Virus record (IMG/VR): IMGVR_UViG_3300021376_000037
Location: 12,998 to 76,997 of that record
Strand: one strand, 5' to 3'
From: a virus
DNA length: 64,000 nt
This document shows positions 5,164 through 32,500 of this stretch, piece after piece. The position numbers and the translations under genes are program-made. Positions within the stretch are counted from its first letter, which is position 1; every line of letters begins with the position of its first letter. A model generated the notes under the pieces. That model saw nothing but the letters and a program-made list of their open reading frames with translations, made no database searches and had not been told where the DNA came from.

Positions 5164-6000
5164 ATGGAACATGTGCAAGTATTAAGAGAATATGTACGAA
5201 ATGTTTTGAGACAGTTAAAATCTAAACAAAGAGAAGAACTACGTCTAGAAAATCAAAACTTTAGAAGATTACGTAGAGAAATTCGTAAAGTATTGCGAGA
5301 AAAACAAGACACTACTCAACATAATTCTACAGGTCTTAATGCATTAGAGAAACTTTTAAATAGCATTGTTCCAATTCTAGAAGTCGGATATAAAGATTTA
5401 AAAACAGACGTTTCACAACGCACATCCTTCAAAGCACACATAGTACGTGGTATACAAAATTTATTGTCTACAGCAGATTTATATTCTAGAGTAGACGACG
5501 AAATAACGGGTGATGTTGCTCCACAGGAAGAACCACAAGAACAATTAGAAGAAGAAGATGGCGTAGACGTAAAATTAACTCCTGAAAAGAATCCTAAGTT
5601 TATTGATATTGACAAGGATAAAAAAGATAAAGAACAGCAGCAACAAAATGATCCAATGAATGCATTTCAACCAGTAGAAGGAGAAGACTTAACTGGTAGA
5701 AACTTTGCCTTGGAAACATTCAAGAAAATTCAAAAACAAATTTTAGAAACATTTTCACTCCTTTCAGACGAAAAAGATAGAGATATTTTCTACAGATATT
5801 TAATAACAAATGTTAAATTGTACTTTGACAAGTTTGAAACTGAATTACAAGCTACCCCGGAGGAACCCACAACTCCTGAATATGAAGCCGAGAAAGCAAA
5901 ACTAGATGCAGAGTTACAAGCATCAGCACCACCGACTGGTGGAGAAATGGCAGCGCCACCGGAACCGGGATTAGAACAACCAATTGAAGAGCCAGCATAA
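5164..6000 (+). CDS. Hypothetical protein, probable prohead-core/internal protein
   Basis: Repeated LRxx(V/I)RxVL helices and acidic Pro-rich linkers. Confidence 0.7.
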   Translation: MEHVQVLREYVRNVLRQLKSKQREELRLENQNFRRLRREIRKVLREKQDTTQHNSTGLNALEKLLNSIVPILEVGYKDLKTDVSQRTSFKAHIVRGIQNLLSTADLYSRVDDEITGDVAPQEEPQEQLEEEDGVDVKLTPEKNPKFIDIDKDKKDKEQQQQNDPMNAFQPVEGEDLTGRNFALETFKKIQKQILETFSLLSDEKDRDIFYRYLITNVKLYFDKFETELQATPEEPTTPEYEAEKAKLDAELQASAPPTGGEMAAPPEPGLEQPIEEPA

Positions 6001-6611: not shown

Positions 6612-6996
6612 TTATAAAAATACTTGTAAAGATTATAGTATTAGTAAAGTATTAAGAGAAGAAAAAAGAAGTAATGAATACTTTGAAATAATGTTAAATA
6701 ATTTAACTTTAGAAGAATTAATAGCTTTAAAGTTAGAATTAGGATATAAAGCTATTGGATTTCCTTTACATGGGTTTCCTGTTTGGAGAAGTACTAATTA
6801 TATAGTAAAAGACGCATTATTAAAATATGCTGTTTCAGCTACACAAACTAAAAGAGAGGCAATGAGATTTTTAGGTTTAGAATCAAAAAGATTCTTTAGA
6901 TTATTGAAAAAATTTAATATCAATGCCTATTTCACCAAACAGGAAAAACAAACAGATGAATATAACAAAAGATCAGTTGAAGAAAATATATCCTAA
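6598..6996 (+). CDS. Fis-type HTH protein
   Basis: C-terminal KREAMRFLGLESKRFFRLLKKFNI matches the Fis/HTH_8 pattern. Confidence 0.55.
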   Translation: MKKNNYKNTCKDYSISKVLREEKRSNEYFEIMLNNLTLEELIALKLELGYKAIGFPLHGFPVWRSTNYIVKDALLKYAVSATQTKREAMRFLGLESKRFFRLLKKFNINAYFTKQEKQTDEYNKRSVEENIS

Positions 6997-7531
6997 TATA
7001 AGACCTGAAAAACTAGAGGTATATACAAATGCTTTTAATAAAGTTTTTCCTTCTTATTGTATCGATACCCCTAGACGGATTGCTGCATTTCTTGGACAAG
7101 TCGGCGTCGAAAGCGGAGAACTCAGATACGACAAAGAACTAGGCTCTAAATGGAACAAGAGAGATGTCGGTAATCGATTTGAACCTGTTGGTACTCTTTA
7201 TGAAGGACGCAAGAATTTAGGTAATACTCAAGTTGGCGATGGTCCTAAATTTATTGGTCGCGGCATTCTTCAGTTGACAGGTAGAGCAAACTATACTAAT
7301 ATGTCTAAGAAATTAGGAGTTGATTTAGTAAACAATCCTGAATTAGCATGTGATCCAGAAATAAGTACTAAAATTGCTTGTGAATATTTTAAAGAACGTG
7401 GTTTATTAGATTTATCTGATAAATGGAATTTAGAAGAAATAACACGTAGAGTAAATGGTAATGCTAAACTTCATCATGATTTGCGTGTACAATACAGCGA
7501 AAGAGCATTAAAAACTTTAAATCCATTTTAG
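6956..7531 (+). CDS. GH19 family endolysin
   Basis: RIAAFLGQVGVESG (catalytic Glu), YEGRKNLGN, GDG.KFIGRG.LQLTGRANY, ITRRVNG. Confidence 0.92.
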   Translation: MNITKDQLKKIYPNIRPEKLEVYTNAFNKVFPSYCIDTPRRIAAFLGQVGVESGELRYDKELGSKWNKRDVGNRFEPVGTLYEGRKNLGNTQVGDGPKFIGRGILQLTGRANYTNMSKKLGVDLVNNPELACDPEISTKIACEYFKERGLLDLSDKWNLEEITRRVNGNAKLHHDLRVQYSERALKTLNPF

Positions 7532-7532
7532 T

Positions 7533-7733
7533 ATGAATAATTATAAATTTTCCTGTGATGAATGTGGATGGCATAATGCTCCTAATATGATGGCTGTTGC
7601 ACATATCGGTTTTAAGTGGTATTGTAGTAGGTGTTTAGATAAATTCTTAAAAGAAGAAAAACGTAAACAAAAAGAAAAGCAACAAAGATTAGCAGAACAA
7701 CAATTAAATATTAGTGGCAGTAAGCCTGTATAG
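7533..7733 (+). CDS. Small Zn-finger protein
   Basis: CDEC...CSRC; the last 10 nt overlap tRNA-Thr. Confidence 0.55.
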   Translation: MNNYKFSCDECGWHNAPNMMAVAHIGFKWYCSRCLDKFLKEEKRKQKEKQQRLAEQQLNISGSKPV

Positions 7734-7795
7734 CACAGCGGTAGTGCAATAGTTTTGTAAACTATAGGTCGGGGGTTCAAATCCCTCTACAGGCT
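7724..7795 (+). tRNA. tRNA-Thr(UGU)
   Basis: Acceptor GCCTGTA/TACAGGC, anticodon arm ATAGT-tt-TGT-aa-ACTAT, T-loop TTCAAAT; no encoded CCA. Confidence 0.95.
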
Positions 7796-7801
7796 CAAAA
7801 T

Positions 7802-7875
7802 GCGAATATAGCTCAGTTGGTTAGAGCAGACGCTTGATAAGCGTCAGGTCAGTGGTTCAAATCCACTTATTCGCA
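7802..7875 (+). tRNA. tRNA-Ile(GAU)
   Basis: Acceptor GCGAATA/TATTCGC, anticodon arm GACGC-tt-GAT-aa-GCGTC. Confidence 0.95.
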
Positions 7876-7879
7876 CTAT

Positions 7880-7963
7880 GCCCGTGTGGTGTAATGGTAG
7901 CCACGGCAGATTCAAAATCTGCTGCCCCTTAAAGGCGTACTGGTTCAAGTCCGGTCACGGGTA
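7880..7963 (+). tRNA. tRNA-Leu(CAA)
   Basis: Acceptor GCCCGTG/CACGGGT, anticodon arm GCAGA-tt-CAA-aa-TCTGC, long variable arm, A73. Confidence 0.95.
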
Positions 7964-7966
7964 TTT

Positions 7967-8038
7967 GCAGGAATAGCTCAGTGGTAGAGCATCACGTTGC
8001 CAACGTGACGGTCGTGGGTTCAAATCCCATTTCCTGCT
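7967..8038 (+). tRNA. tRNA-Gly(GCC)
   Basis: Acceptor GCAGGAA/TTCCTGC, anticodon arm TCACG-tt-GCC-aa-CGTGA, U73. Confidence 0.95.
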
Positions 8039-8355
8039 TGTTGATAGTAGGTAGTAGGCTTACAAGTAGCCATCTTTAATGAGTGAGACAAAATCCTTAT
8101 AGCAGATATAATTCCGTTAACAGCGGGGAGCGTTGCGAAATATTGCCCGAAGAAAGCACAACGAAACCCGAAGTCAGTTGTGTAGACACATCGTTGGTAG
8201 GAAAGCTCCTATATATCATTAGTCTTGAAGGTTGGGTAATGGGCAGAAAGTCAGGAAACTGATTGGACCGTAATCAACGATAAGATAATACTGAAAATAT
8301 TATTCTGTTGGTTGCCACCATCTCTTTAGTGTAGTAACACGTCTACTATTAACAA
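8038..8355 (+). ncRNA. Structured RNA containing a split mimic of 23S rRNA helices 43/44 (GTPase-associated centre)
   Basis: 13-bp terminal stem 8038-8050/8343-8355. The H43-like segment GTAGGCTTACAAGTAGCCATCTTTAATGAGT and the H44-like hairpin GT-GTAGTA-AC flank a multi-helix insert. No ORF; richer in GC than the flanking genes. Confidence 0.8.
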
Positions 8356-8370
8356 CTTGAAAGGAAATAT

Positions 8371-8670
8371 ATGGCTAAGAAAAAAGAAACATATTGGAAT
8401 TATAGATTATATGAAAAAGAATTTTGTAGTTCCGCTGGAGAAAAATGGACTGAATGTGGTATAATTGAAGTGTATTATGAAGGACAAAAGATTAAAGGTT
8501 ATACAGATAGTTTTATGTTCCCCTATGGTGAATCAGCTGCGGAAGCAAAAGAAGATTTCTTATTAATGAGTAAGGCTTTTGAAAAACCAGTTCTAACAAT
8601 AAAAGATTTAGAACCTAAAAAAACAAAAGCTAAGAAAGTGAAAAAGAAAAATGAGAAAAGCAAGCGTTAA
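8371..8670 (+). CDS. Hypothetical protein (WNYR...EVYY family), copy 1
   Basis: SD AAAGGA; paralog of the next gene. Confidence 0.75.
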   Translation: MAKKKETYWNYRLYEKEFCSSAGEKWTECGIIEVYYEGQKIKGYTDSFMFPYGESAAEAKEDFLLMSKAFEKPVLTIKDLEPKKTKAKKVKKKNEKSKR

Positions 8671-8959
8671 AGATTGGAATTATAGAGTATTTAAATCTGG
8701 TGATTTTTTTGGTATAGTAGAAGTATATTATGATGTTAGCGGAAATCCTGTTGGCTTTAGTGATTATAATTATCCGTTTGGTTATACTGAGGGAGAATTA
8801 AAATTAGATATATCCAGCATGCTAAAAGCTTGCAGATTACCTGTATTAACAAAAGAAGATTTTGAAAAAAAATCTGTACGTAAGAGTAAAATTGTTGTAC
8901 CATCAGTAAAGAATCCTCCACCTAAAGAGGTCATGGCTAAAGGAGATAATAATGTCTAA
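8651..8959 (+). CDS. Hypothetical protein (WNYR...EVYY family), copy 2
   Basis: Shares WNYR, GI.EVYY, P.G and PVLT..D with the previous gene. Confidence 0.75.
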   Translation: MRKASVKDWNYRVFKSGDFFGIVEVYYDVSGNPVGFSDYNYPFGYTEGELKLDISSMLKACRLPVLTKEDFEKKSVRKSKIVVPSVKNPPPKEVMAKGDNNV

Positions 8960-9207: not shown

Positions 9208-9834
9208 ATGATCTTCGGTAAAACACTCAACGACGATAAGGATAAGCAGAAGGAAGCTGCGCCACAACGTAAGTCTAGAGAAAAAGACGAAGATATTCTT
9301 GAGGTAGAACATGAAGATGGACGTATTTATTTTTATACTGAAGTTAACAAAGGTTCTATTTTAGATCTCAATAAGGCTATTCGTGCAAGCGAAGCAGATA
9401 TGCTTCATACTGCTAATGTTTTAGATATTGCTCCACCGCATATTAAATTGCATATTAATAGTCCCGGTGGCAGTTTATTTGACGGTCTTGCAGCAGTTGA
9501 TTATGTACGCAAGTGTAAAGTACCTGTTCATTCTATTATTGAAGGTATGGCAGCGTCTGCTGCTACACTTATTTCTGTAATGGCCCATAAACGTTCCATC
9601 AATAAACATTCTTATATGCTTATTCATCAACTTTCTTCTGGATTAGTAGGAAAGTATGAAGAGTTAGTGGATGATATGGAAAACAATAAAACTTTAATGA
9701 AAGCCATTAAGCAAATTTATCTGGAACGTACAAAAATCCCAGAAAACCTGTTGAAAGATATTCTTAAAAAAGATATCTATTTTGATGCAAAGCAGTGTTT
9801 GAAATACGGTTTAGTAGACCATATTATTGAATAA
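9208..9834 (+). CDS. clpP: ClpP-like protease (S14)
   Basis: INSPGGS, GMAASAA (Ser), YMLIHQ (His), D.YF.A...LKYGLVD. Confidence 0.9.
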   Translation: MIFGKTLNDDKDKQKEAAPQRKSREKDEDILEVEHEDGRIYFYTEVNKGSILDLNKAIRASEADMLHTANVLDIAPPHIKLHINSPGGSLFDGLAAVDYVRKCKVPVHSIIEGMAASAATLISVMAHKRSINKHSYMLIHQLSSGLVGKYEELVDDMENNKTLMKAIKQIYLERTKIPENLLKDILKKDIYFDAKQCLKYGLVDHIIE

Positions 9835-9847
9835 AGGAAAATATACA

Positions 9848-10120
9848 ATGAAGACTATCGTTATGACAGCAGTAGCAGCAGCTATGTTTGTAGGCTGTAC
9901 CAGTAAGACTTCTACACCAGTAACAGGCACAACTACGACCACTACACCTGTTGTTGAAGTAACTGCTCCCGCTGTATCTACACAAACAACCCCTACTGTA
10001 GCCGCTCCAGTTGCTCCACAAACCGCTGTAGTGGCCCCATCCGTAGATGGAAGCTCCTCTGCCGTTCCATCGACAGGTAGCGTTTCTGACAGTTCTACAA
10101 ACACAGTAGAAAAGAAGTAG
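9848..10120 (+). CDS. Small Thr/Pro/Ser-rich lipoprotein
   Basis: Signal and lipobox MKTIVMTAVAAAMFVG-C, then a low-complexity T/P/V/S tail; SD AAAGGA. Confidence 0.75.
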   Translation: MKTIVMTAVAAAMFVGCTSKTSTPVTGTTTTTTPVVEVTAPAVSTQTTPTVAAPVAPQTAVVAPSVDGSSSAVPSTGSVSDSSTNTVEKK

Positions 10121-10130
10121 TTTGCATAAT

Positions 10131-10573: not shown

Positions 10574-10765
10574 ATGAAAAAAAATAACAATAGCAGCACA
10601 GTTTGGTTAAGAATAATGGTAATAATAAACACACTTGCTGTTGCTAGTTATATTTTTTATGGTGAATGGGAAAAGAAACAACCACGGATGGTAAAACATG
10701 TTTGCCAAACCGTGGCTGCTGATCAAGAAAAAGGTTTGATCGCCCTTACCTGCTTAGAAGATTAA
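10574..10765 (+). CDS. Small bitopic membrane protein
   Basis: N-terminal TM segment and two Cys; ATG lies 1 nt past the tRNA-Ala discriminator. Confidence 0.6.
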   Translation: MKKNNNSSTVWLRIMVIINTLAVASYIFYGEWEKKQPRMVKHVCQTVAADQEKGLIALTCLED

Positions 10766-11580
10766 GCGCTTTCTAGTTGCCACAATCCCTCTGCAAGTGC
10801 CAATAATGTCTTAGCATTTTCTAAGCTAACACATATTGATATATGTTCATAAGCTATTGTACGTTTGCTTAATAAACCAATTACTTTACCTTTGTAAAAG
10901 ATACCTGAACCGCTATGACCGGGAGCAGAAGGAAGAGTAACTATTTCTTCGTTATTTTCATCTAATCCCATATATCTACCATCAGTTACGATGAAGATGT
11001 TTTTTGGATGATAGCCAAGAGCAGCACCAGATATTAACACACTTGCTCCAACTGGTGGTGTATTGTCAGCTAATTCTGCTGCTTCTCCTGCTATGCAAGC
11101 ACTTTTAATAACTGACAAATCTTTTTTTCCATCGCCAGCCATAGGATATGCTGCACATTTTTCACCATCTAATCTTTCAACCATCATTTCTATTGTATCT
11201 ATTTTGAAGAAATAAAAACCACTTTCATCAAATTCTAATGTTACCTTTTCTGGATGTGTTACGTGGGCAACACTTAATATCAAACTTTCTTTTTTGTTGT
11301 AGTTATTTCTGACAACCACGCCAGAACCTGTCCAACTTTTGCTTTCGCTTTTTTCTTTTGTTTCTGGTGGAACTGAAGCATTAACACCTAATAAACTAGC
11401 TAAATTGGTTCTATGACCAGAGATTTTAGTATATATTTTAACGGTGCTGCTCATTGCTTCACGGGCATCATAACCTTCTTCTTTAAACATTCCGCAACGT
11501 TTAAAACAACCGCTCATCATTACTAACATCATTGTTGCTGCTATTAATTTATGTTTAATCCATGTATTATTTCCTTTCAT
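10762..11580 (-). CDS. Trypsin-like (S1) serine protease, lipoprotein
   Basis: Lipobox MSG-C; TGSGVV, SVAHV (His), KDLSVI (Asp), GHSGSGIF (Ser); SD GGAGG. Confidence 0.88.
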   Translation of the reverse strand: MKGNNTWIKHKLIAATMMLVMMSGCFKRCGMFKEEGYDAREAMSSTVKIYTKISGHRTNLASLLGVNASVPPETKEKSESKSWTGSGVVVRNNYNKKESLILSVAHVTHPEKVTLEFDESGFYFFKIDTIEMMVERLDGEKCAAYPMAGDGKKDLSVIKSACIAGEAAELADNTPPVGASVLISGAALGYHPKNIFIVTDGRYMGLDENNEEIVTLPSAPGHSGSGIFYKGKVIGLLSKRTIAYEHISICVSLENAKTLLALAEGLWQLESA

Positions 11581-12315: not shown

Positions 12316-12897
12316 ATGCAAATCACCACTATAAACAATAACTCTAATGATAATCGTAACATCGTTGATCGGTATAAGCATGATCGTTTGGTTAAATGGA
12401 CTACGGAAATGATAAAGACTGATCTTCAACAAAAGTCTTTTCCATTTGCAGTTATGATGGAAAACTTTGTTGGAGATTTTAATCTTTCTTCTGTTCTACG
12501 TTCTTGTAATGCCATGAATGGTCGTGAAATGTTCTATTTGGGTCGTAAACAATATGACCGTCGTGGAACTGTTGGAACACATCACTACACTGATTTGATT
12601 AACGTAAAGACCCGTGAGGAGCTTTTAAAGCTAAAGGAACGATATACTTTCGTTGCACTTGAAAATAGCGTACCGCAAGCAGAATCTATTTATGATTTTA
12701 TGTGGCCCGAAAATCCACTTATTATTATTGGTGAAGAGGGAGTAGGGATTACACCAGAAACTCTTGAACTCTGTGACCGTTATGTATTCATTAATCAATA
12801 CGGCTCAGTGCGCTCAATGAATGCAGCAGTAGCGGGAAGTATTGCAATGAATGACTTTGTAATGAAATATGTAAAAAATAAAGACAAGATGCGCTAG
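12316..12897 (+). CDS. SpoU/TrmH-family RNA 2'-O-methyltransferase (SPOUT)
   Basis: Motif 1 EN....FNLSSVLRS, motif 2 IIGEEGVGI, motif 3 I...GSVRSMNAAVAGSI. Confidence 0.9.
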   Translation: MQITTINNNSNDNRNIVDRYKHDRLVKWTTEMIKTDLQQKSFPFAVMMENFVGDFNLSSVLRSCNAMNGREMFYLGRKQYDRRGTVGTHHYTDLINVKTREELLKLKERYTFVALENSVPQAESIYDFMWPENPLIIIGEEGVGITPETLELCDRYVFINQYGSVRSMNAAVAGSIAMNDFVMKYVKNKDKMR

Positions 12898-12942: not shown

Positions 12943-14256
12943 ATGTCAAAAAAATACTATGTTCTAGATACAAACGTGTATCTAAGTGACTGTGACGCAA
13001 TCTTTGCTTATAAGAATCATAACGTAGCAATCCCTTTAAAAGTATTAGAAGAAGTAGATAAGCACAAGAAACGTCAAGATGGTGTTGGAGCTAACGCAAG
13101 ACAATTTATAAGAACCCTAGATGCCCTTAGAGAAAAAGGAAGTTTAGATGACGGGGCAAAGCTAGGTAAGGGCAAAGGAATTGCCTCAGTTATTCCTTGC
13201 GATTTGTCACTACTTCCTACTGGATTTGAAAAAGATAATGCCGACAACCAAATTATTGCTGCTGCCCTAACTCTTATTCGTGAAATAGGAGATAATAAAA
13301 ATGTATTCTTAGTGTCTCAAGATATCAACATGAGAGTCAAGTGTGACTCCCTTGGTATCAATACAGAAGATTATATTCCTAATCAAATAGTAGAACGTGC
13401 AGAAGAAGTATTTACAGGATTTACACAATATCTTGTTGATGATGCTTTAATTGATCGTTTCTATGCTGGCGAAAAGATCATGTTTGAAGAAAAAGATATT
13501 AAGTTATGTCCAAATCAATTTGTAATGCTTGTATCCAATGCAAATGATAAAAAGACAGCACTAGCTCGTTTCCGTGCTTATAATAAGCCAATTACAAAAG
13601 TTCGGGAATATAAAGACGGTGTTTGGGGTATCTATGCAAAGAATAAAGAACAACAATTTGCATTAGAATTACTTATGGACCCGGAAGTTAAAATTGTTTC
13701 TATTATTGGTCGTGCTGGTGGTGGTAAAACACTCAATGCATTGGCGGCTGGCTTACAACAAATTCTAGATGACAAGGTTTATAAAAAGCTTATTGTATCC
13801 CGCCCCGTCCAGCCAATGGGTAAAGATATCGGTTATTTGCCGGGAACATTAGAAGAAAAAATGTCTCCTTGGCTAGCGCCTGTACAAGACAATTTAGAGT
13901 TTCTTATGGGTGATGATAAAGCACATTTACAAATGTTAATGGAAGCTGGAACAATTGAAATGGAAGCTTTAACATATATCCGTGGTCGTTCTATTGCTAA
14001 TGCTTTTATCATCATCGATGAATCGCAAAATTTAACTTCTCACGAATTAAAGACTATAATTACTCGGGTAGGCGAAGGAACAAAAATAGTATTAACCGGA
14101 GATATTGAACAAATAGATAATGCATATGTAGATGCTACAACAAACGGTCTTACTTATGCTGTAGAAAAGTTAAAAGATTACGAAATTTCTGGTCACATTA
14201 CATTAAAGAAAGGTGAGCGTTCCGCTGTAGCTACTCTAGCCGCTCAAGTATTATAA
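12943..14256 (+). CDS. phoH: PIN-PhoH protein (PhoH2-type)
   Basis: PIN domain VLDTNV...EEVD...DNQII...SQD; Walker A GRAGGGKT; GYLPG, YIRGRS, IIDESQN, GD.EQID. ACTATTTA at 12901. Confidence 0.93.
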   Translation: MSKKYYVLDTNVYLSDCDAIFAYKNHNVAIPLKVLEEVDKHKKRQDGVGANARQFIRTLDALREKGSLDDGAKLGKGKGIASVIPCDLSLLPTGFEKDNADNQIIAAALTLIREIGDNKNVFLVSQDINMRVKCDSLGINTEDYIPNQIVERAEEVFTGFTQYLVDDALIDRFYAGEKIMFEEKDIKLCPNQFVMLVSNANDKKTALARFRAYNKPITKVREYKDGVWGIYAKNKEQQFALELLMDPEVKIVSIIGRAGGGKTLNALAAGLQQILDDKVYKKLIVSRPVQPMGKDIGYLPGTLEEKMSPWLAPVQDNLEFLMGDDKAHLQMLMEAGTIEMEALTYIRGRSIANAFIIIDESQNLTSHELKTIITRVGEGTKIVLTGDIEQIDNAYVDATTNGLTYAVEKLKDYEISGHITLKKGERSAVATLAAQVL

Positions 14257-28648: not shown

Positions 28649-29566
28649 ATGGCACCTATAAGAAGAAATAAATTAAATCAAATTATTGATGATCTTTACG
28701 GCTTGTTCAAGAATGAAACTAGCCCTAATGCTGAAGAGGGCTTTGCTAGAAGTACAATGTATGAACCCAATAATATTCGTCATTTAAATACTACTGATGC
28801 CGATGAAACAATAGAAGGTCAGAATAATCAAGCTATTTGGTTTAGAAGAGATGGCTTTAATGATCATACAGATGGTTTGGGTGGTGCCGGTCATGCTAAA
28901 TGTGGCGCTATAGATATATGTGTTGGTTTTTCTTCCATTCTTGATCATGAGGATATTCCCGGTCCTGTTAATCCAAGTACCGGTGCTGACGCAGCCAGAG
29001 TGTATTTAAGTCAAAAATCTCTTGTTGATCAGTATTTCGGAATTAAATTACCAATGTTTGGTGAAAGCCCACCTCGTTCCGCAGTGGCAATAAAAGCAGA
29101 TGATGTTCGTTTGATAGCTAGAAATAGCTTTAAAATTGTAACCAACACAGACAACGTATTATCTATAAATGCACCTAGTATGAACGGTACTGGTGTTCAA
29201 CTTATAGCTAATAATGAAAGCCCAGACGTTTTACAACCTATGATAAAAGGTCAAAACCTAATAGAAGGGTTAACAGAGTTATCTGAGAAAATAGACGCTA
29301 TAAATAGCACTCTTCTAAGTTTTATACAGGCACAAAAAAGTCTTAATGAAGAATTACGTACACACGTTCATCAAGTACCTTTTTACGATGATGCAGTAAC
29401 CTTTTATTCTACTAGTGTTTTTCAACTGGGTTTAAACGTAAACACATTTCTTGATTCTTTACAAGAAAAAAATAAAATGGAATCTATTAATTTAGGTTCT
29501 TGGAGAAATAAGTTTTTGGATCATGGCGAAAAGCATATAGCTAGTTCTTATCATTTATTAAATTAA
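28649..29566 (+). CDS. Probable baseplate central spike (gp5 C-terminus/gpV-like)
   Basis: Beta-strand repeats (AVAIKADDVRLIAR..FKIV), P..KG..L helix, THVH metal-binding tip motif; position before the wedge genes. Confidence 0.55.
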   Translation: MAPIRRNKLNQIIDDLYGLFKNETSPNAEEGFARSTMYEPNNIRHLNTTDADETIEGQNNQAIWFRRDGFNDHTDGLGGAGHAKCGAIDICVGFSSILDHEDIPGPVNPSTGADAARVYLSQKSLVDQYFGIKLPMFGESPPRSAVAIKADDVRLIARNSFKIVTNTDNVLSINAPSMNGTGVQLIANNESPDVLQPMIKGQNLIEGLTELSEKIDAINSTLLSFIQAQKSLNEELRTHVHQVPFYDDAVTFYSTSVFQLGLNVNTFLDSLQEKNKMESINLGSWRNKFLDHGEKHIASSYHLLN

Positions 29567-29567
29567 T

Positions 29568-32500
29568 ATGTTTAATGTAAATTCTAAAAAGTATCCTGTT
29601 TATAAAGATTTTAATACTCATACTTTATCCAGTAATTCAGGCGATGTATTAAAACATTTTTTCGCTATTCAAGAATTGCCGCCTTCAACTCCTATTCCTG
29701 TTAACTATGAGCTTTTGGACGATAATACTCCTATTATATTGTTAGAAGAAAAAATAGGCTATAAGGGTTTATGGAATAGGATAAAAGTAAAAGATGGCGA
29801 TAACTATAAAATTGGTTACGTTAAAAGCGTTTTAAAGCCAATTAGTGGGTCTTTACCTTTTCATCCTGTTAATTTAGCTATTGAAAATTTGCCAAATTAT
29901 TCAGCTGCACAAATTGATTGGATTAATCAACCTCCCGGTGTCGTATACGACGATGTACATAACGCATGTTATGCTGTGCATTATGAATTAGAAGATGTAA
30001 CAAGTGTAGAAGATAGAAACACTTTTAATAATAGTTTAAGAAGAGCTTATTTAGAGGGTTCAAAATTAATTTTAGAAGAAAAAGGATTCTCTTCTAATGA
30101 AATAGATAATTTACTAAATAATTATTACATTTTTTCTAGAGCAGAAGAATGGTATATAAATCCTAGACCGTGCTCCACATTAAGAGTTTTAGTGGCTATT
30201 CCAAAAAAATATGTCAATTATTATTTGAATAGAAACGTTATTAATAAAATTTCTAATTTCAAACCAAAAAGTCCTACTAAAAAATACAAAACTAAAACAT
30301 TTAATAATTATTTTGAATATAAAGAATTTTTTGATAGTTTGACAACAACTCTTAAACATTATAATACGGGCTTAGTGGGAAGAACATGGGAATTAGACCC
30401 AGATTACATGACCTTTAATCTAGCAGTAGAGGCTGAAAATGTAATGAAACTAGAAGAAAAAATAATTCTTTTTCTAAAGCAAAATATTCCTTCTGCCTTC
30501 GTAAATACTCAGCGTGATTTATTATTTACTTCTAAAGAAATATGGCTAGGAAGTTTAGAATTAGTTTTTGATGAACTATGCATTACAGAAATAAAATTTA
30601 AAACATTCAACAATAATAAATTAAATAGTTTATATGAAATAGTTAAAAATAGATCATATGAAGATTTGAAAAATAACTATATAAATGATTTGCCTGATAC
30701 AGATGCAGTGTTCAATACTGGTGTTACGTCTTTTTTAAAAGACGCAGCTGTTTTAGATAAAACTAATGTCTATTATTTGCTTAATTTTAATCCTTCTGAC
30801 GATTCCGTAGCTATTATTGACAATTTATTAGATGTTAACTATGAAAAAAAGATAGAGACTTTTTTGGTGGAAAAGCATTATCCAAGCATTTTTAAATTTG
30901 AATTTAAACCATTAAATTTAATTCAATGTTCTGTAGATAACGCTATGCGTTTAAATAATTTAGCTCAATATAAGTTACCTAGTGAAATAGAAAAATTTAA
31001 AAGAGTTCGCCAAAGAGCAGTTGATAATCAAATAAAAAATGAAGGTGATCCGTTCTCAAGCGCTTTTGTTGATTTAAACACGGTAGTTGATCCTAATATG
31101 AGAGTTTTATTAGGATTAGATTTACCGCGTGGTAAAACGGCTAAAGAAAAATTAATGAATTATATCATTGTAGCCAAGCGTATAGATTGGGGAAAATTTT
31201 TAGCTATCTCTTCAGCGTGCATGGCTAAATATCTATCTCCTGAAGAATATAGACAATTATTAGATAGTTATCAAAACGCTAAAAAATATCTTGATACTTT
31301 AGCAGCAAATAGTATTTGTAATCCATATTTAACTAATGCTTTAAAGACAATAAATATGGTTGGAATACCAGAATTTCCTGTAATAAGTCAAAATGCTTCT
31401 TTAGTTAAACAAATAGAAAATGCAATTATTCAGATGGTGATGGATTTATTACAGCAAACGATTAAATCTGCTTTAATTAATGCTGCAAAAGCGTGCTTAT
31501 CTGATCCAAACGCTGACTATACAGATAATAGTCCTCAATCGGCTGATGAAGTAGGTGATTTTTTAAATAATAATTCTAATAACAATGTTAACAATTTATT
31601 AAATGATTTAGGTGATTCTTCTTTATCGCCTGATAAAGTAAAAAACGATTTAATAAGTCTAATTGATGATCTTTCATCTTGCTTGACTCCAAAAGAGATG
31701 TGCAAATTATTTAGTAACACTACCCTAAATGACGATGTTATGCAGATAATCATAACACTAGTCAAGAGAAAATATCCTGAATATTCAAATAAACTAAACG
31801 ATAAAAAATCTATTTCTAACTTATTCCTTACTCTTGGAAATAATATAGATTTAACTATCTGTAGGGATTTAATAAATTCTGACACTCCTTCCTCTGCTGA
31901 TTCTACAAGCGTAATTTGTGACGGAGAAAAAATAAATAACATAAGAGAGGCTTTATTAAAAGATAAAGGCTTGGATCAAGAATTAATAGATGATCTGCTT
32001 AATCAAATAAAACAAAAAGAAAAGAAAAATTTAGAAGACGTTTTTAAATTGCTAAGTTCTGATAAACCTTTTGATATTTCTTTAGCTCCTAATGTTTTGT
32101 GCAATATGTTACCTGATGAAGCGCTCGGAACTTTTGATCAAGACCAGAAAAACAGTATAGACTCTATTTTTAACTCGATGTATAGCATATTTGATGAAGA
32201 AGCGTTAGAGTGGCACAAGATAACTTATTCAACAAAAAAGCAAAATAAAACAATAATTGAATGGGACTCTAACAATCAAACATTCAAAATTCCGCCTCCA
32301 GATTCTAATGCGTTCAAGCAACAAGGTGATGAAATAAAAAAACTTAATGATCCCGACAAAAGTAAGGATATTAATATTGCTTTACTCGATAGTTCTGTAA
32401 ACGATAAAAAAATACCTTTTTATTTATTTAAATATGGTTTACGTAATTCTTCTTATGAGGTTTATGATGATAAAAATAATTTCTATTTATACAATAAAAT

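Follow-up and report, generated by a model that had tools for sequence, protein, structure and literature searches.

RNAs outside the ribosome that imitate a protein-binding site of rRNA are best described among the leaders of ribosomal-protein genes (e.g., the L10 leader, RF00557, the L1-binding rplKA leader, and the L20 and S15 leaders). These are cis-acting leaders of cellular mRNAs that serve feedback control and are usually loose mimics, and we know of no described ribosomal-protein leader that mimics the site of uL11. That site is the GTPase-associated center (GAC) of 23S rRNA, made of the top of helix 42 (H42) and helices H43 and H44, and the isolated RNA of positions 1051-1108 (58 nt) binds uL11 tightly. 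Here we describe a phage RNA that is a near-exact copy of this whole tertiary domain. It is 318 nt long and lies at 8038-8355 on the plus strand of the window, by which we mean the whole 64,000-nt stretch of DNA analyzed (positions 12,998 to 76,997 of IMG/VR virus record IMGVR_UViG_3300021376_000037); the window is part of this A+T-rich, 77-kb record, which is ∼42% complete. Unlike the ribosomal-protein leaders, the RNA is phage-encoded and has no ribosomal-protein gene downstream (the gene at 8371 encodes a phrog_21321 protein), and no ribosomal-protein leader model of Rfam 15 matches in the window.

Phages are also known to carry large structured noncoding RNAs in their tRNA regions, namely GOLLD (RF01998) and ROOL (RF03087), which the RNA resembles in nature and location and with which it shares no similarity beyond that. 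To our knowledge, no rRNA-like module has been reported in either. The original prediction had left open a GOLLD-like identity, which can be set aside because Rfam 15 gave no GOLLD, ROOL or L10 leader match in the whole window at the gathering score, or in 7950-8450 at E values up to 10, where it returned tRNAs and noise (PGK, E = 7.8). In 20 loci of the wider class described below, it found tRNA and transfer-messenger RNA (tmRNA) only. The tRNA cluster of phage T4 likewise ends in two small stable RNAs, C and D (species 1 and 2), which are comparable in being co-located, and presumably co-processed, with tRNAs; as possible class members they were rejected, since they lack a GAC motif and the 3′ portion of rnaC is a T-arm and acceptor like those of a tRNA. 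The 6S RNA, the bacterial Y RNA/YrlA tRNA mimic and viral tRNA-like structures offer a parallel in capturing partners by shape imitation, yet the molecules that they imitate are others, and none is a ribosomal functional center.

The reading of 8038-8355 as a GAC rebuilt from two distant halves was upheld by the match to 23S rRNA and by covariation, and the coordinates, motifs and named positions originally given for the unit were all correct. The RNA is discrete and noncoding: no open reading frame (ORF) of ≥60 amino acids (aa) lies within it, it is conserved in 13 homologs of lake phages, from related phage or metagenome contigs, its closing stem covaries, and it belongs to no Rfam family. 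Its G+C content is 42-47%, vs. ∼30% in the flanks. Immediately upstream is a Thr-Ile-Leu-Gly tRNA array (7724-8038, plus strand, ARAGORN) that ends in tRNA-Gly(GCC) at 7967-8038 (plus strand, ARAGORN; 74.5 bits with the Rfam tRNA model). Nucleotide 8038 is both the discriminator of this tRNA and the first base of the closing stem, and tRNA 3′ processing would therefore create the 5′ end of the RNA.

The closing stem, P1, takes approximately the place of the top of H42 and pairs 8038-8052 with 8341-8355 (both plus strand). Its core is formed by TTGTTGATAGTAG (8038-8050) and CTACTATTAACAA (8343-8355), with one or two extra pairs (8051/8052 with 8342/8341). Within it, 8054-8084 reads GTAGGC-TTACAAGTA-GCCATCTTTAATGAGT, or GUAGGC-UUACAAGUA-GCCAUC-UUUAAUGAGU as RNA. 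The H43 copy (8053-8075, plus strand) consists of the stem GGC 8057-8059/GCC 8069-8071, the lower pairs A8053-U8075 (1058-1080) and G8054-C8074 (1059-1079), and a 9-nt loop, UUACAAGUA (8060-8068), in which A1067, G1071, U1072 and A1073 correspond to 8062, 8066, 8067 and 8068, respectively. The junction that follows, UUUAAUGAGU (8075-8084, plus strand, equivalent to 1080-1090), is invariant in the family; its G8081 (G1087) can pair with C8340 (1102), and its A8082 (A1088) is bulged. The second half begins ∼245 nt away, beyond a structured insert of ∼240 nt. UUUA (8325-8328, plus strand; class consensus UUUG), whose U8327 can pair with A8339 (1101), leads into the H44 copy GUGUAGUAAC (1091-1100) and its tail ACGU (1101-1104), which together occupy 8329-8342 (plus strand); the segment 8329-8340 reads GTGTAGTAACAC. 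H44 is formed by the pairs G8329-C8338 and U8330-A8337 (1092-1099), with G8331·A8336 at the sheared-pair position and A8333 as A1095, and the base triple 1072·(1092-1099) takes the form U8067·(U8330-A8337). The nucleotide at position 1061 is A8056, the same A as in U1061A, a stabilized RNA variant with which uL11 complexes have been made and whose sequence is quoted in PMC1802607; thermophile rRNA has A1061 as well.

The phage RNA and the E. coli GAC (1051-1108) are thus alike in secondary structure and near-identical in the sequence of H43, junction and H44, and the phage RNA keeps the 1072 triple (as U·(U-A)), the bulged A1088, G1071, A1073 and the G1093·A1098 position. In contrast to the rRNA domain, the phage copy is free-standing, lies beside tRNA genes in a phage genome, is closed by a stem of arbitrary sequence, and has its strand broken at ∼1090/1091 by the 240-nt domain. 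Position 1101 is A in the phage RNA and U in rRNA, and the junction of the window family is shorter by one nucleotide. The mimicry does not extend to the L10/L12 site in lower H42, L10-L12 having been among the partners suggested in the original prediction; the sequence of the closing stem varies freely.

Judged on sequence, the resemblance to 23S rRNA is above chance and of homology grade. The window RNA matches 23S positions 1053-1107, and when the family profile was compared with the E. coli rrn operon by nhmmer, 1058-1088 was the sole significant stretch. Compared with the window copy, the family consensus of H43 (GGCUUAGAAGUAGCC) is nearer to the E. coli sequence (GGCUUAGAAGCAGCC). In a divergent homolog (L022), a 49-nt piece matches only the 23S rRNA gene in 5426 of 5426 complete E. 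coli genomes (28 Gb; 93% over 30 nt, E = 6×10−3, a median of seven places per genome), and the Rfam model LSU_rRNA_bacteria matches the same piece at model positions 1098-1144 (E = 2×10−5). This model gives no match on the window copy and finds nothing further in the phage record; the copy is flanked by a tRNA and a protein gene instead of lower H42, H41 and H45. A likeness of the insert to 23S domain II (CGAAACCCG, GGUUGGGUAA) was dropped as not significant (nhmmer E = 0.47).

The family was assembled in two ways. Eight related IMG/VR contigs were traced via the upstream endolysin gene, and all eight carry the element, at ∼79% identity; the tRNA array is absent before it in five of the eight, which indicates that the element is independent of the tRNAs. 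A metagenome scan with the invariant motif UUUAAWGAGUGARACAAAAUCC yielded six further contigs. Four of these have full-length, more divergent copies (L019, L020, L022, L026); of the other two, L025 is a close relative and L027 has a copy truncated on the 5′ side. Phage tmRNA genes (L020:1041-1391 and L019:1163-1511) immediately precede the RNA in two contigs, and tRNAs precede it in L022 and L026. BLAST of the window RNA against 50,697 phage records and an exact-motif scan of IMG/VR gave no match, and none of 185,579 species genomes contains the family motif. In the 13-sequence alignment, nine of the 15 pairs of P1 have changed on both sides, with 86% paired, and the covariation score is reached by no shuffle and collapses when the partners are slid by 1-3 columns.

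The family-specific insert (8089-8320, plus strand; RNAalifold; ∼240 nt when counted with its closing helix, 8085-8324) is structured as well. The closing helix Pi (GAGA 8085-8088/UCUC 8321-8324, plus strand) shows a compensatory change from G-C to A-U in three homologs (L004, L007, L020). Subdomain A comprises Pa (8105-8110/8212-8217), Pb (8114-8118/8122-8126), Pc (8127-8130/8206-8209), Pd (8135-8137/8144-8146) and Pe (8156-8162/8177-8183), and subdomain B comprises Pf (8227-8231/8315-8319), Pg (8250-8254/8259-8263) and Ph (8283-8289/8298-8304). Compensatory changes occur in six of these helices (Pa, Pc, Pe, Pf, Pg and Ph). A loop-to-strand pseudoknot, Pk, joins ACCC 8166-8169 to GGGU 8234-8237, with A-U in eight sequences and C-G in three. 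No sarcin-ricin-like hairpin was found in the insert of this family.

Four pattern scans, over IMG/VR or species genomes, place the family in a much larger class. The H43 motif with U1072 retrieved 36 new phage contigs, the same motif with C1072 retrieved >119, and a 3′-half motif retrieved at least 120 stretches, many of them new. The class comprises several hundred phage RNAs, on at least 200 contigs, which have the split design in common and vary in their inserts. Almost all can be written as an arbitrary stem strand, GGNAN-GUNGGC-loop-GCCAUC-NUUUAAAGAGU, the insert, YYUUUG-G[C/U]GUAANA[G/A]C-ACAC, and the second stem strand. The 5′ half is GU-N-GGC, a 9-nt loop YYRNAAG[C/U]A, GCCAUC and N-UUUAAAGAGU, to which the window conforms with a junction one nucleotide shorter. 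In the 3′ half, the insert lies between GAGU and UUU[G/A], after which comes G[C/U]GUAANA[G/A]C-ACAC; the window conforms here too (8085-8324, then UUUA-GUGUAGUAAC-ACGU at 8325-8342). Closing stems in the class range from 7 to 19 bp and are unrelated in sequence, and inserts range from 23 to 365 nt and form at least 64 sequence clusters; the insert of the window (∼240 nt) is well above their median of 151 nt. The homologs anticipated near phage tRNA arrays do occur: of 122 loci, 54 have a same-strand tRNA or tmRNA no more than 100 nt away, 76 have one no more than 500 nt away, and none has tRNAs solely on the opposite strand. Like its class, the window RNA has a closing stem of free sequence, an isosteric form of the triple, and a co-oriented location by tRNA genes. 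A sarcin-ricin-loop copy is found within the insert of some class members.

No protein family accompanies the RNA class-wide, the best cluster, TerD, being present in nine of 122 loci. No description of the class was found in Rfam 15, in GenBank annotation of cultured phages or by full-text searches of the literature, nor is it mentioned in papers on cyanobacterial tRNA arrays or in a catalog of 10,000 candidate viral structured RNAs. Cultured phages do carry members. The T4-like Pseudomonas phage pf16 (KU873925.1, ∼29413-29609, minus strand; L292:1494-1690) has an unannotated member with C1072 (C-type) in the gap between tRNA-Asn and tRNA-Pro, and 5′-half matches were found in phages UNO-G1W1, Milchi, Astolliot, Aeromonas 4_4572, Xanthomonas XacN1, Cronobacter GAP32 and Pectobacterium CBB, under no annotated gene except in Milchi, where the match lies under a hypothetical protein. 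The existence of unannotated members in cultured phages makes the question of function directly testable.

Several further features of the class were observed. Three other class loci (L148, L164, L169) contain a tmRNA as well. In one subgroup, of at most nine of 122 loci, the RNA lies near genes for TerD, vWA-TerF-like and DUF2828/DUF7788 proteins (L150:8493-9194, L246:1062-1943, L150:4728-6176). One 174-kb phage contig has two split-GAC 5′ halves 318 nt apart (L231:5135-5155 and 5453-5473), which suggests tandem copies. Compact, uninterrupted and self-closed GAC copies exist outside rRNA genes in metagenome-assembled genomes (MAGs) of Gastranaerophilales (L080:4305) and Cetobacterium (L100:658) and in an IMG/VR contig (L189); the Gastranaerophilales copy begins 19 nt past a tRNA, and a pistol ribozyme is found in the same region (L080:1325-1397).

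Among non-redundant class RNAs, the base triple changes almost without exception as a unit. In the H43-anchored set, in which 1092 and 1099 were unconstrained, there are 74 RNAs with C·(C-G), 28 with U·(U-A), none with U·(U·G) and one genuine exception (L252), the other off-type rows being false 3′-half calls, e.g., in tRNA genes. The 3′-half-anchored set, in which the H43 loop was unconstrained, gave 47, 17 and four, respectively, again with one genuine exception, and the loci found by the 3′ half only gave 16, nine and three, with no genuine exception. Both states are present inside three insert-similarity clusters, and thus the three-position switch has happened several times. Of 37 archaeal and candidate phyla radiation (CPR) 23S genes in which position 1072 is U, 35 also have U at 1092, so that U·(U-A) is an isosteric alternative of natural rRNAs, as had been proposed. 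The tail after C1100 is ACAC in C-type and U-type members alike, while 1092-1099 is either C-G or U-A, which supports the rRNA pairing register of H44. A single-sequence fold of the window RNA gave a 14-bp terminal stem enclosing a 5′ GGCU/AGCC hairpin and a 3′ GUGU/ACAC hairpin (z = −2.05); the GUGU/ACAC register of this minimum free energy structure was rejected, as it would leave C-type members with a C·A mismatch, whereas the rRNA register covaries. Among 102 non-redundant class RNAs, the pair 1058-1080 is G-C in 41, U-A in 36, A-U in 20 and C-G in three (98% Watson-Crick, vs. 33% when shuffled), and the pair 1057-1081 is Watson-Crick in 89% across the class. A triple nearly without mixed forms, together with a pair found in all four Watson-Crick types, indicates that the three-dimensional fold is under selection, both purifying and compensatory, in the window family and throughout the class; the early argument from the triple against a decaying rRNA fragment is borne out by its almost perfect covariation across the phage class.

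The conservation of single nucleotides agrees with this. U1066, G1071 and A1073 are conserved at 99-100% and A1095 is A in 95%, whereas the 1067 position is A in only 54-81% and G in ∼17-43% of the class. Constraint is thus stronger on the tertiary core than on 1067, the contact point for factors, the tRNA elbow and thiostrepton, a pattern that fits selection on the fold and on the protein-binding shape. The original prediction had noted the retention of A1067, which holds in the window (8062) and not class-wide; as this position is often G, ligands specific to A1067 (thiostrepton, Tsr-type methylation) are unlikely to be the selected partners. If the fold is as it appears, a functional center of the ribosome has repeatedly been excised and expressed as a separate molecule in viruses, and the class would offer natural data on the tertiary fold of the GAC from RNAs that evolve independently of rRNA, in which the triple switches repeatedly. 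It would also account for some of the sequence that is still unannotated around the tRNA genes of large phages.

A related RNA of ∼230 nt was found in 52 genomes, mostly of cyanobacteria and including one Acidobacteriota MAG (e.g., Calothrix brevissima, L047, ∼5400-5700, minus strand; L078, L046, L036, L041, and ∼47 other genome contigs). It has a closing stem UGCGUGC/GCACGCA, an exact sarcin-ricin loop UAGUACGAGAGGAA, an uninterrupted GAC and a U·(U-A) triple; ∼13 copies lie inside arrays of 10-35 tRNAs, and Rfam gives only a 60-80-nt “LSU rRNA” match. Like the phage RNA, it is a free-standing GAC with U·(U-A) and a closing stem of its own, often situated within long tRNA arrays. It differs from the phage RNA in that its GAC is unbroken, a sarcin-ricin-loop domain lies 5′ of the GAC, and the locus is chromosomal or plasmid-borne. 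This combination of GAC and sarcin-ricin loop is apparently undescribed. Just downstream are genes for NADAR (five loci), Tpt1/KptA RNA 2′-phosphotransferase (three), an RNA ligase fused to a tRNA-binding domain (two), a ThiF-like enzyme, and a conserved 276-aa protein without a Pfam family (at least 17 loci), with examples at L083:624-1064, L111:4674-5228, L103:4624-5907, L078:909-1739 and L064:3264-3899. The neighborhood looks like an RNA-repair and ADP-ribose context.

The role that we favor for the window RNA, while holding it to fall a little short of probable, is that of a stable, trans-acting imitation of the uL11-binding GAC, which would compete for uL11 and/or for molecules that recognize the site; this proposal is drawn from sequence comparison. 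The RNA would be transcribed together with the tRNA array and then released by 3′-end processing of tRNA-Gly. Once folded, it would bind the uL11 of the host, in the way known in vitro for the isolated 58-nt domain of rRNA, and the RNA or its ribonucleoprotein would compete with ribosomes for uL11 and/or for molecules recognizing the GAC site. RelA activation requires uL11, and one outcome could be uL11-poor ribosomes that are unable to activate RelA, and hence no stringent response during infection; another could be the protection of real ribosomes from GAC-directed agents. The 240-nt insert would be a family-specific accessory domain. The partner is probably a host component, because no phage protein accompanies the RNA and because genes for uL11 or translational GTPases are absent from the four related records, one of which is 96% complete. 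A role of this kind would represent a new class of phage-host interaction on the translation apparatus, bearing on uL11, the stringent response, translational GTPases or rRNA-directed toxins.

Several points weigh against this proposal. The junction of the window is one nucleotide short (CUUUAAUG vs. CNUUUAAAG of rRNA and most class members), and the copy has U at the A1086 position and U·U at 1057-1081. The other nucleotides expected in the tertiary core (G1071, the 1072 triple, A1073, U1066, A1088, G1093·A1098 and U1082) are present, and the junction of L022 and L026 has the rRNA form; in three other homologs (L003, L009, L020), two hairpins are inserted after C1079 as a second expansion (a CCGAAAGG hairpin and another; L003:5321-5349). 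With such deviations, affinity for uL11 could be below that of rRNA, and they are what chiefly casts doubt on whether the copy is fully equivalent in function to the rRNA domain. Moreover, titrating an abundant ribosomal protein demands high RNA levels, and a simple sponge leaves the large conserved insert unexplained. Finally, the sarcin-ricin-loop copy of many class members elsewhere and of the cyanobacterial relatives, a loop that uL11 does not touch, suggests that the class-level target reads the whole factor-binding site.

A broader reading can be offered, tentatively, as a possibility for phages and mobile cyanobacterial tRNA arrays together: both may carry “ribosome-in-pieces” RNAs, i.e., fold-exact GACs, some with a sarcin-ricin loop, that act in trans as decoys where translation is contested, absorbing rRNA-directed toxins or immune effectors, or stripping ribosomes of uL11 and so silencing the stringent response. 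If true, this would be a form of counter-defense that parallels phage tRNAs and is aimed at rRNA, and it would connect the tRNA clusters of phages with cyanobacterial tRNA arrays induced by stress. For the window RNA itself, a decoy function directed at GAC attackers from the host or from competitors (ADP-ribosyltransferases, nucleases, N-glycosidases, perhaps thiopeptides), by which ribosomes keep working during infection, seems rather doubtful and is nevertheless the alternative that survives best. It would have a parallel in phage tRNAs that take the place of tRNAs attacked by anticodon nucleases, or out-compete them. An attacker of this sort exists in the Tre23 toxin, which ADP-ribosylates H44 (bases 1095-1098) and blocks elongation factor G (EF-G) (PMC8661411), and the H44 loop purine 1095 is A in nearly all of the class, as given above. 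The RNAs lie in tRNA/tmRNA clusters, in some phages with an adjoining CCA-adding enzyme, and the cyanobacterial GAC with its exact sarcin-ricin loop lies in stress-induced tRNA arrays with RNA-repair-type neighbors. That repair-gene association is cyanobacterial, however; the neighbors of the phage RNA are an endolysin, small uncharacterized proteins and a ClpP-like protease. A decoy must also out-compete tens of thousands of ribosomes, the variability of A1067 disfavors thiopeptides as the target, and we know of no defense system that targets the GAC during phage infection.

Since the GAC is the docking site of translational GTPases and RelA, the RNA, with or without uL11, might instead bind EF-G, the EF-Tu ternary complex, IF2, RF3, BipA or RelA, and sequester or mis-activate them. 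Munishkin and Wool are reported to have found in 1997, in work on a “ribosome-in-pieces,” that EF-G binds oligonucleotides of both the GAC and the sarcin-ricin loop, and other class members and the cyanobacterial relatives join the GAC to a copy of that loop, the second half of the factor site. We consider such a trap or platform unlikely for the window RNA, whose family has no sarcin-ricin-like hairpin in its insert; A1067, a main contact of factors and the tRNA elbow, is frequently G in the class, and factors bind isolated GAC RNA weakly.

It is about equally improbable that the GAC is a handle, i.e., a stable module capped by uL11 that protects or presents the variable insert as the functional part. 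This would explain why inserts are wholly different between subfamilies (23-365 nt, at least 64 clusters) while the module is constant, and the insert of the window family is itself conserved, with covarying helices and a pseudoknot. But the insert of some class members is no longer than ∼20-60 nt, and L080, L100 and L189 have compact copies with no interruption at all, which implies that the GAC module can stand alone; nor is there a reason why a clamp would need the exact rRNA tertiary core.

A role in cis is very unlikely, whether as a 5′ leader that controls the gene at 8371 or as a signal by which the tRNA operon is processed or terminated. The RNA does end 15 nt before the 8371 start codon with no intervening terminator, yet downstream genes vary across the family and class, the RNA sits between two tRNAs in many loci, and 318 nt with a preserved rRNA tertiary core far exceeds the needs of a leader. 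The capture of a functionless fragment of host 23S rRNA, to which the identity to 23S and the genuine rRNA pieces in some phage records (Paenibacillus phage Pd_22F) might point, is excluded by the covariation data, as the copy is split in two and has a covarying closing stem of its own, is deeply conserved with compensatory changes and a coordinated three-position triple, and has U1072, which in a survey of genomes occurred in genuine rRNA contexts only in archaea, CPR bacteria and one endosymbiont. The stretch in Pd_22F (MZ092003.1; L293:1150-1560) is contiguous, covers ∼1030-1400 of 23S, is unannotated and resembles host rRNA.

The genes around the RNA are those of a freshwater phage: the record was found in lake-water metagenomes, all 20 public runs that contain it are lake-water or freshwater DNA metagenomes, with no RNA-sequencing run among them, and the prohead protease, sought as a clue to the host, is ≤32% identical to those of all cultured relatives. 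A scan for promoters and terminators found sites no more numerous than in shuffled sequence. Upstream of the RNA lies a GH19 endolysin (6923-7528). The first downstream gene (8371-8670, plus strand), which starts 15 nt after the RNA, encodes a 99-aa protein (phrog_21321) that is conserved in close relatives only and does not accompany the RNA class-wide; a paralog follows at 8651-8959. Further on are the ClpP-like protease (9208-9831), a trypsin-like peptidase on the opposite strand (10765-11580) and a SpoU-family 2′-O-methyltransferase (12316-12894, plus strand). The last is conserved in all four related phage records, and its synteny was seen among close relatives only. As a candidate A1067 (Tsr-like) enzyme it was rejected, being closest to TrmH (tRNA Gm18) and RlmB, and it probably modifies the phage tRNAs. 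A G+C-rich patch at 9849-10121 (plus strand) was considered as a second RNA and rejected, since it has no Rfam match and is a lipoprotein-like ORF. Located between the ClpP-like protease and a tRNA-Ala, it encodes a small product that has a signal peptide, a lipobox (FVGC) and a tail rich in Thr, Pro and Ala, and that could be a spanin or a surface-exclusion lipoprotein.

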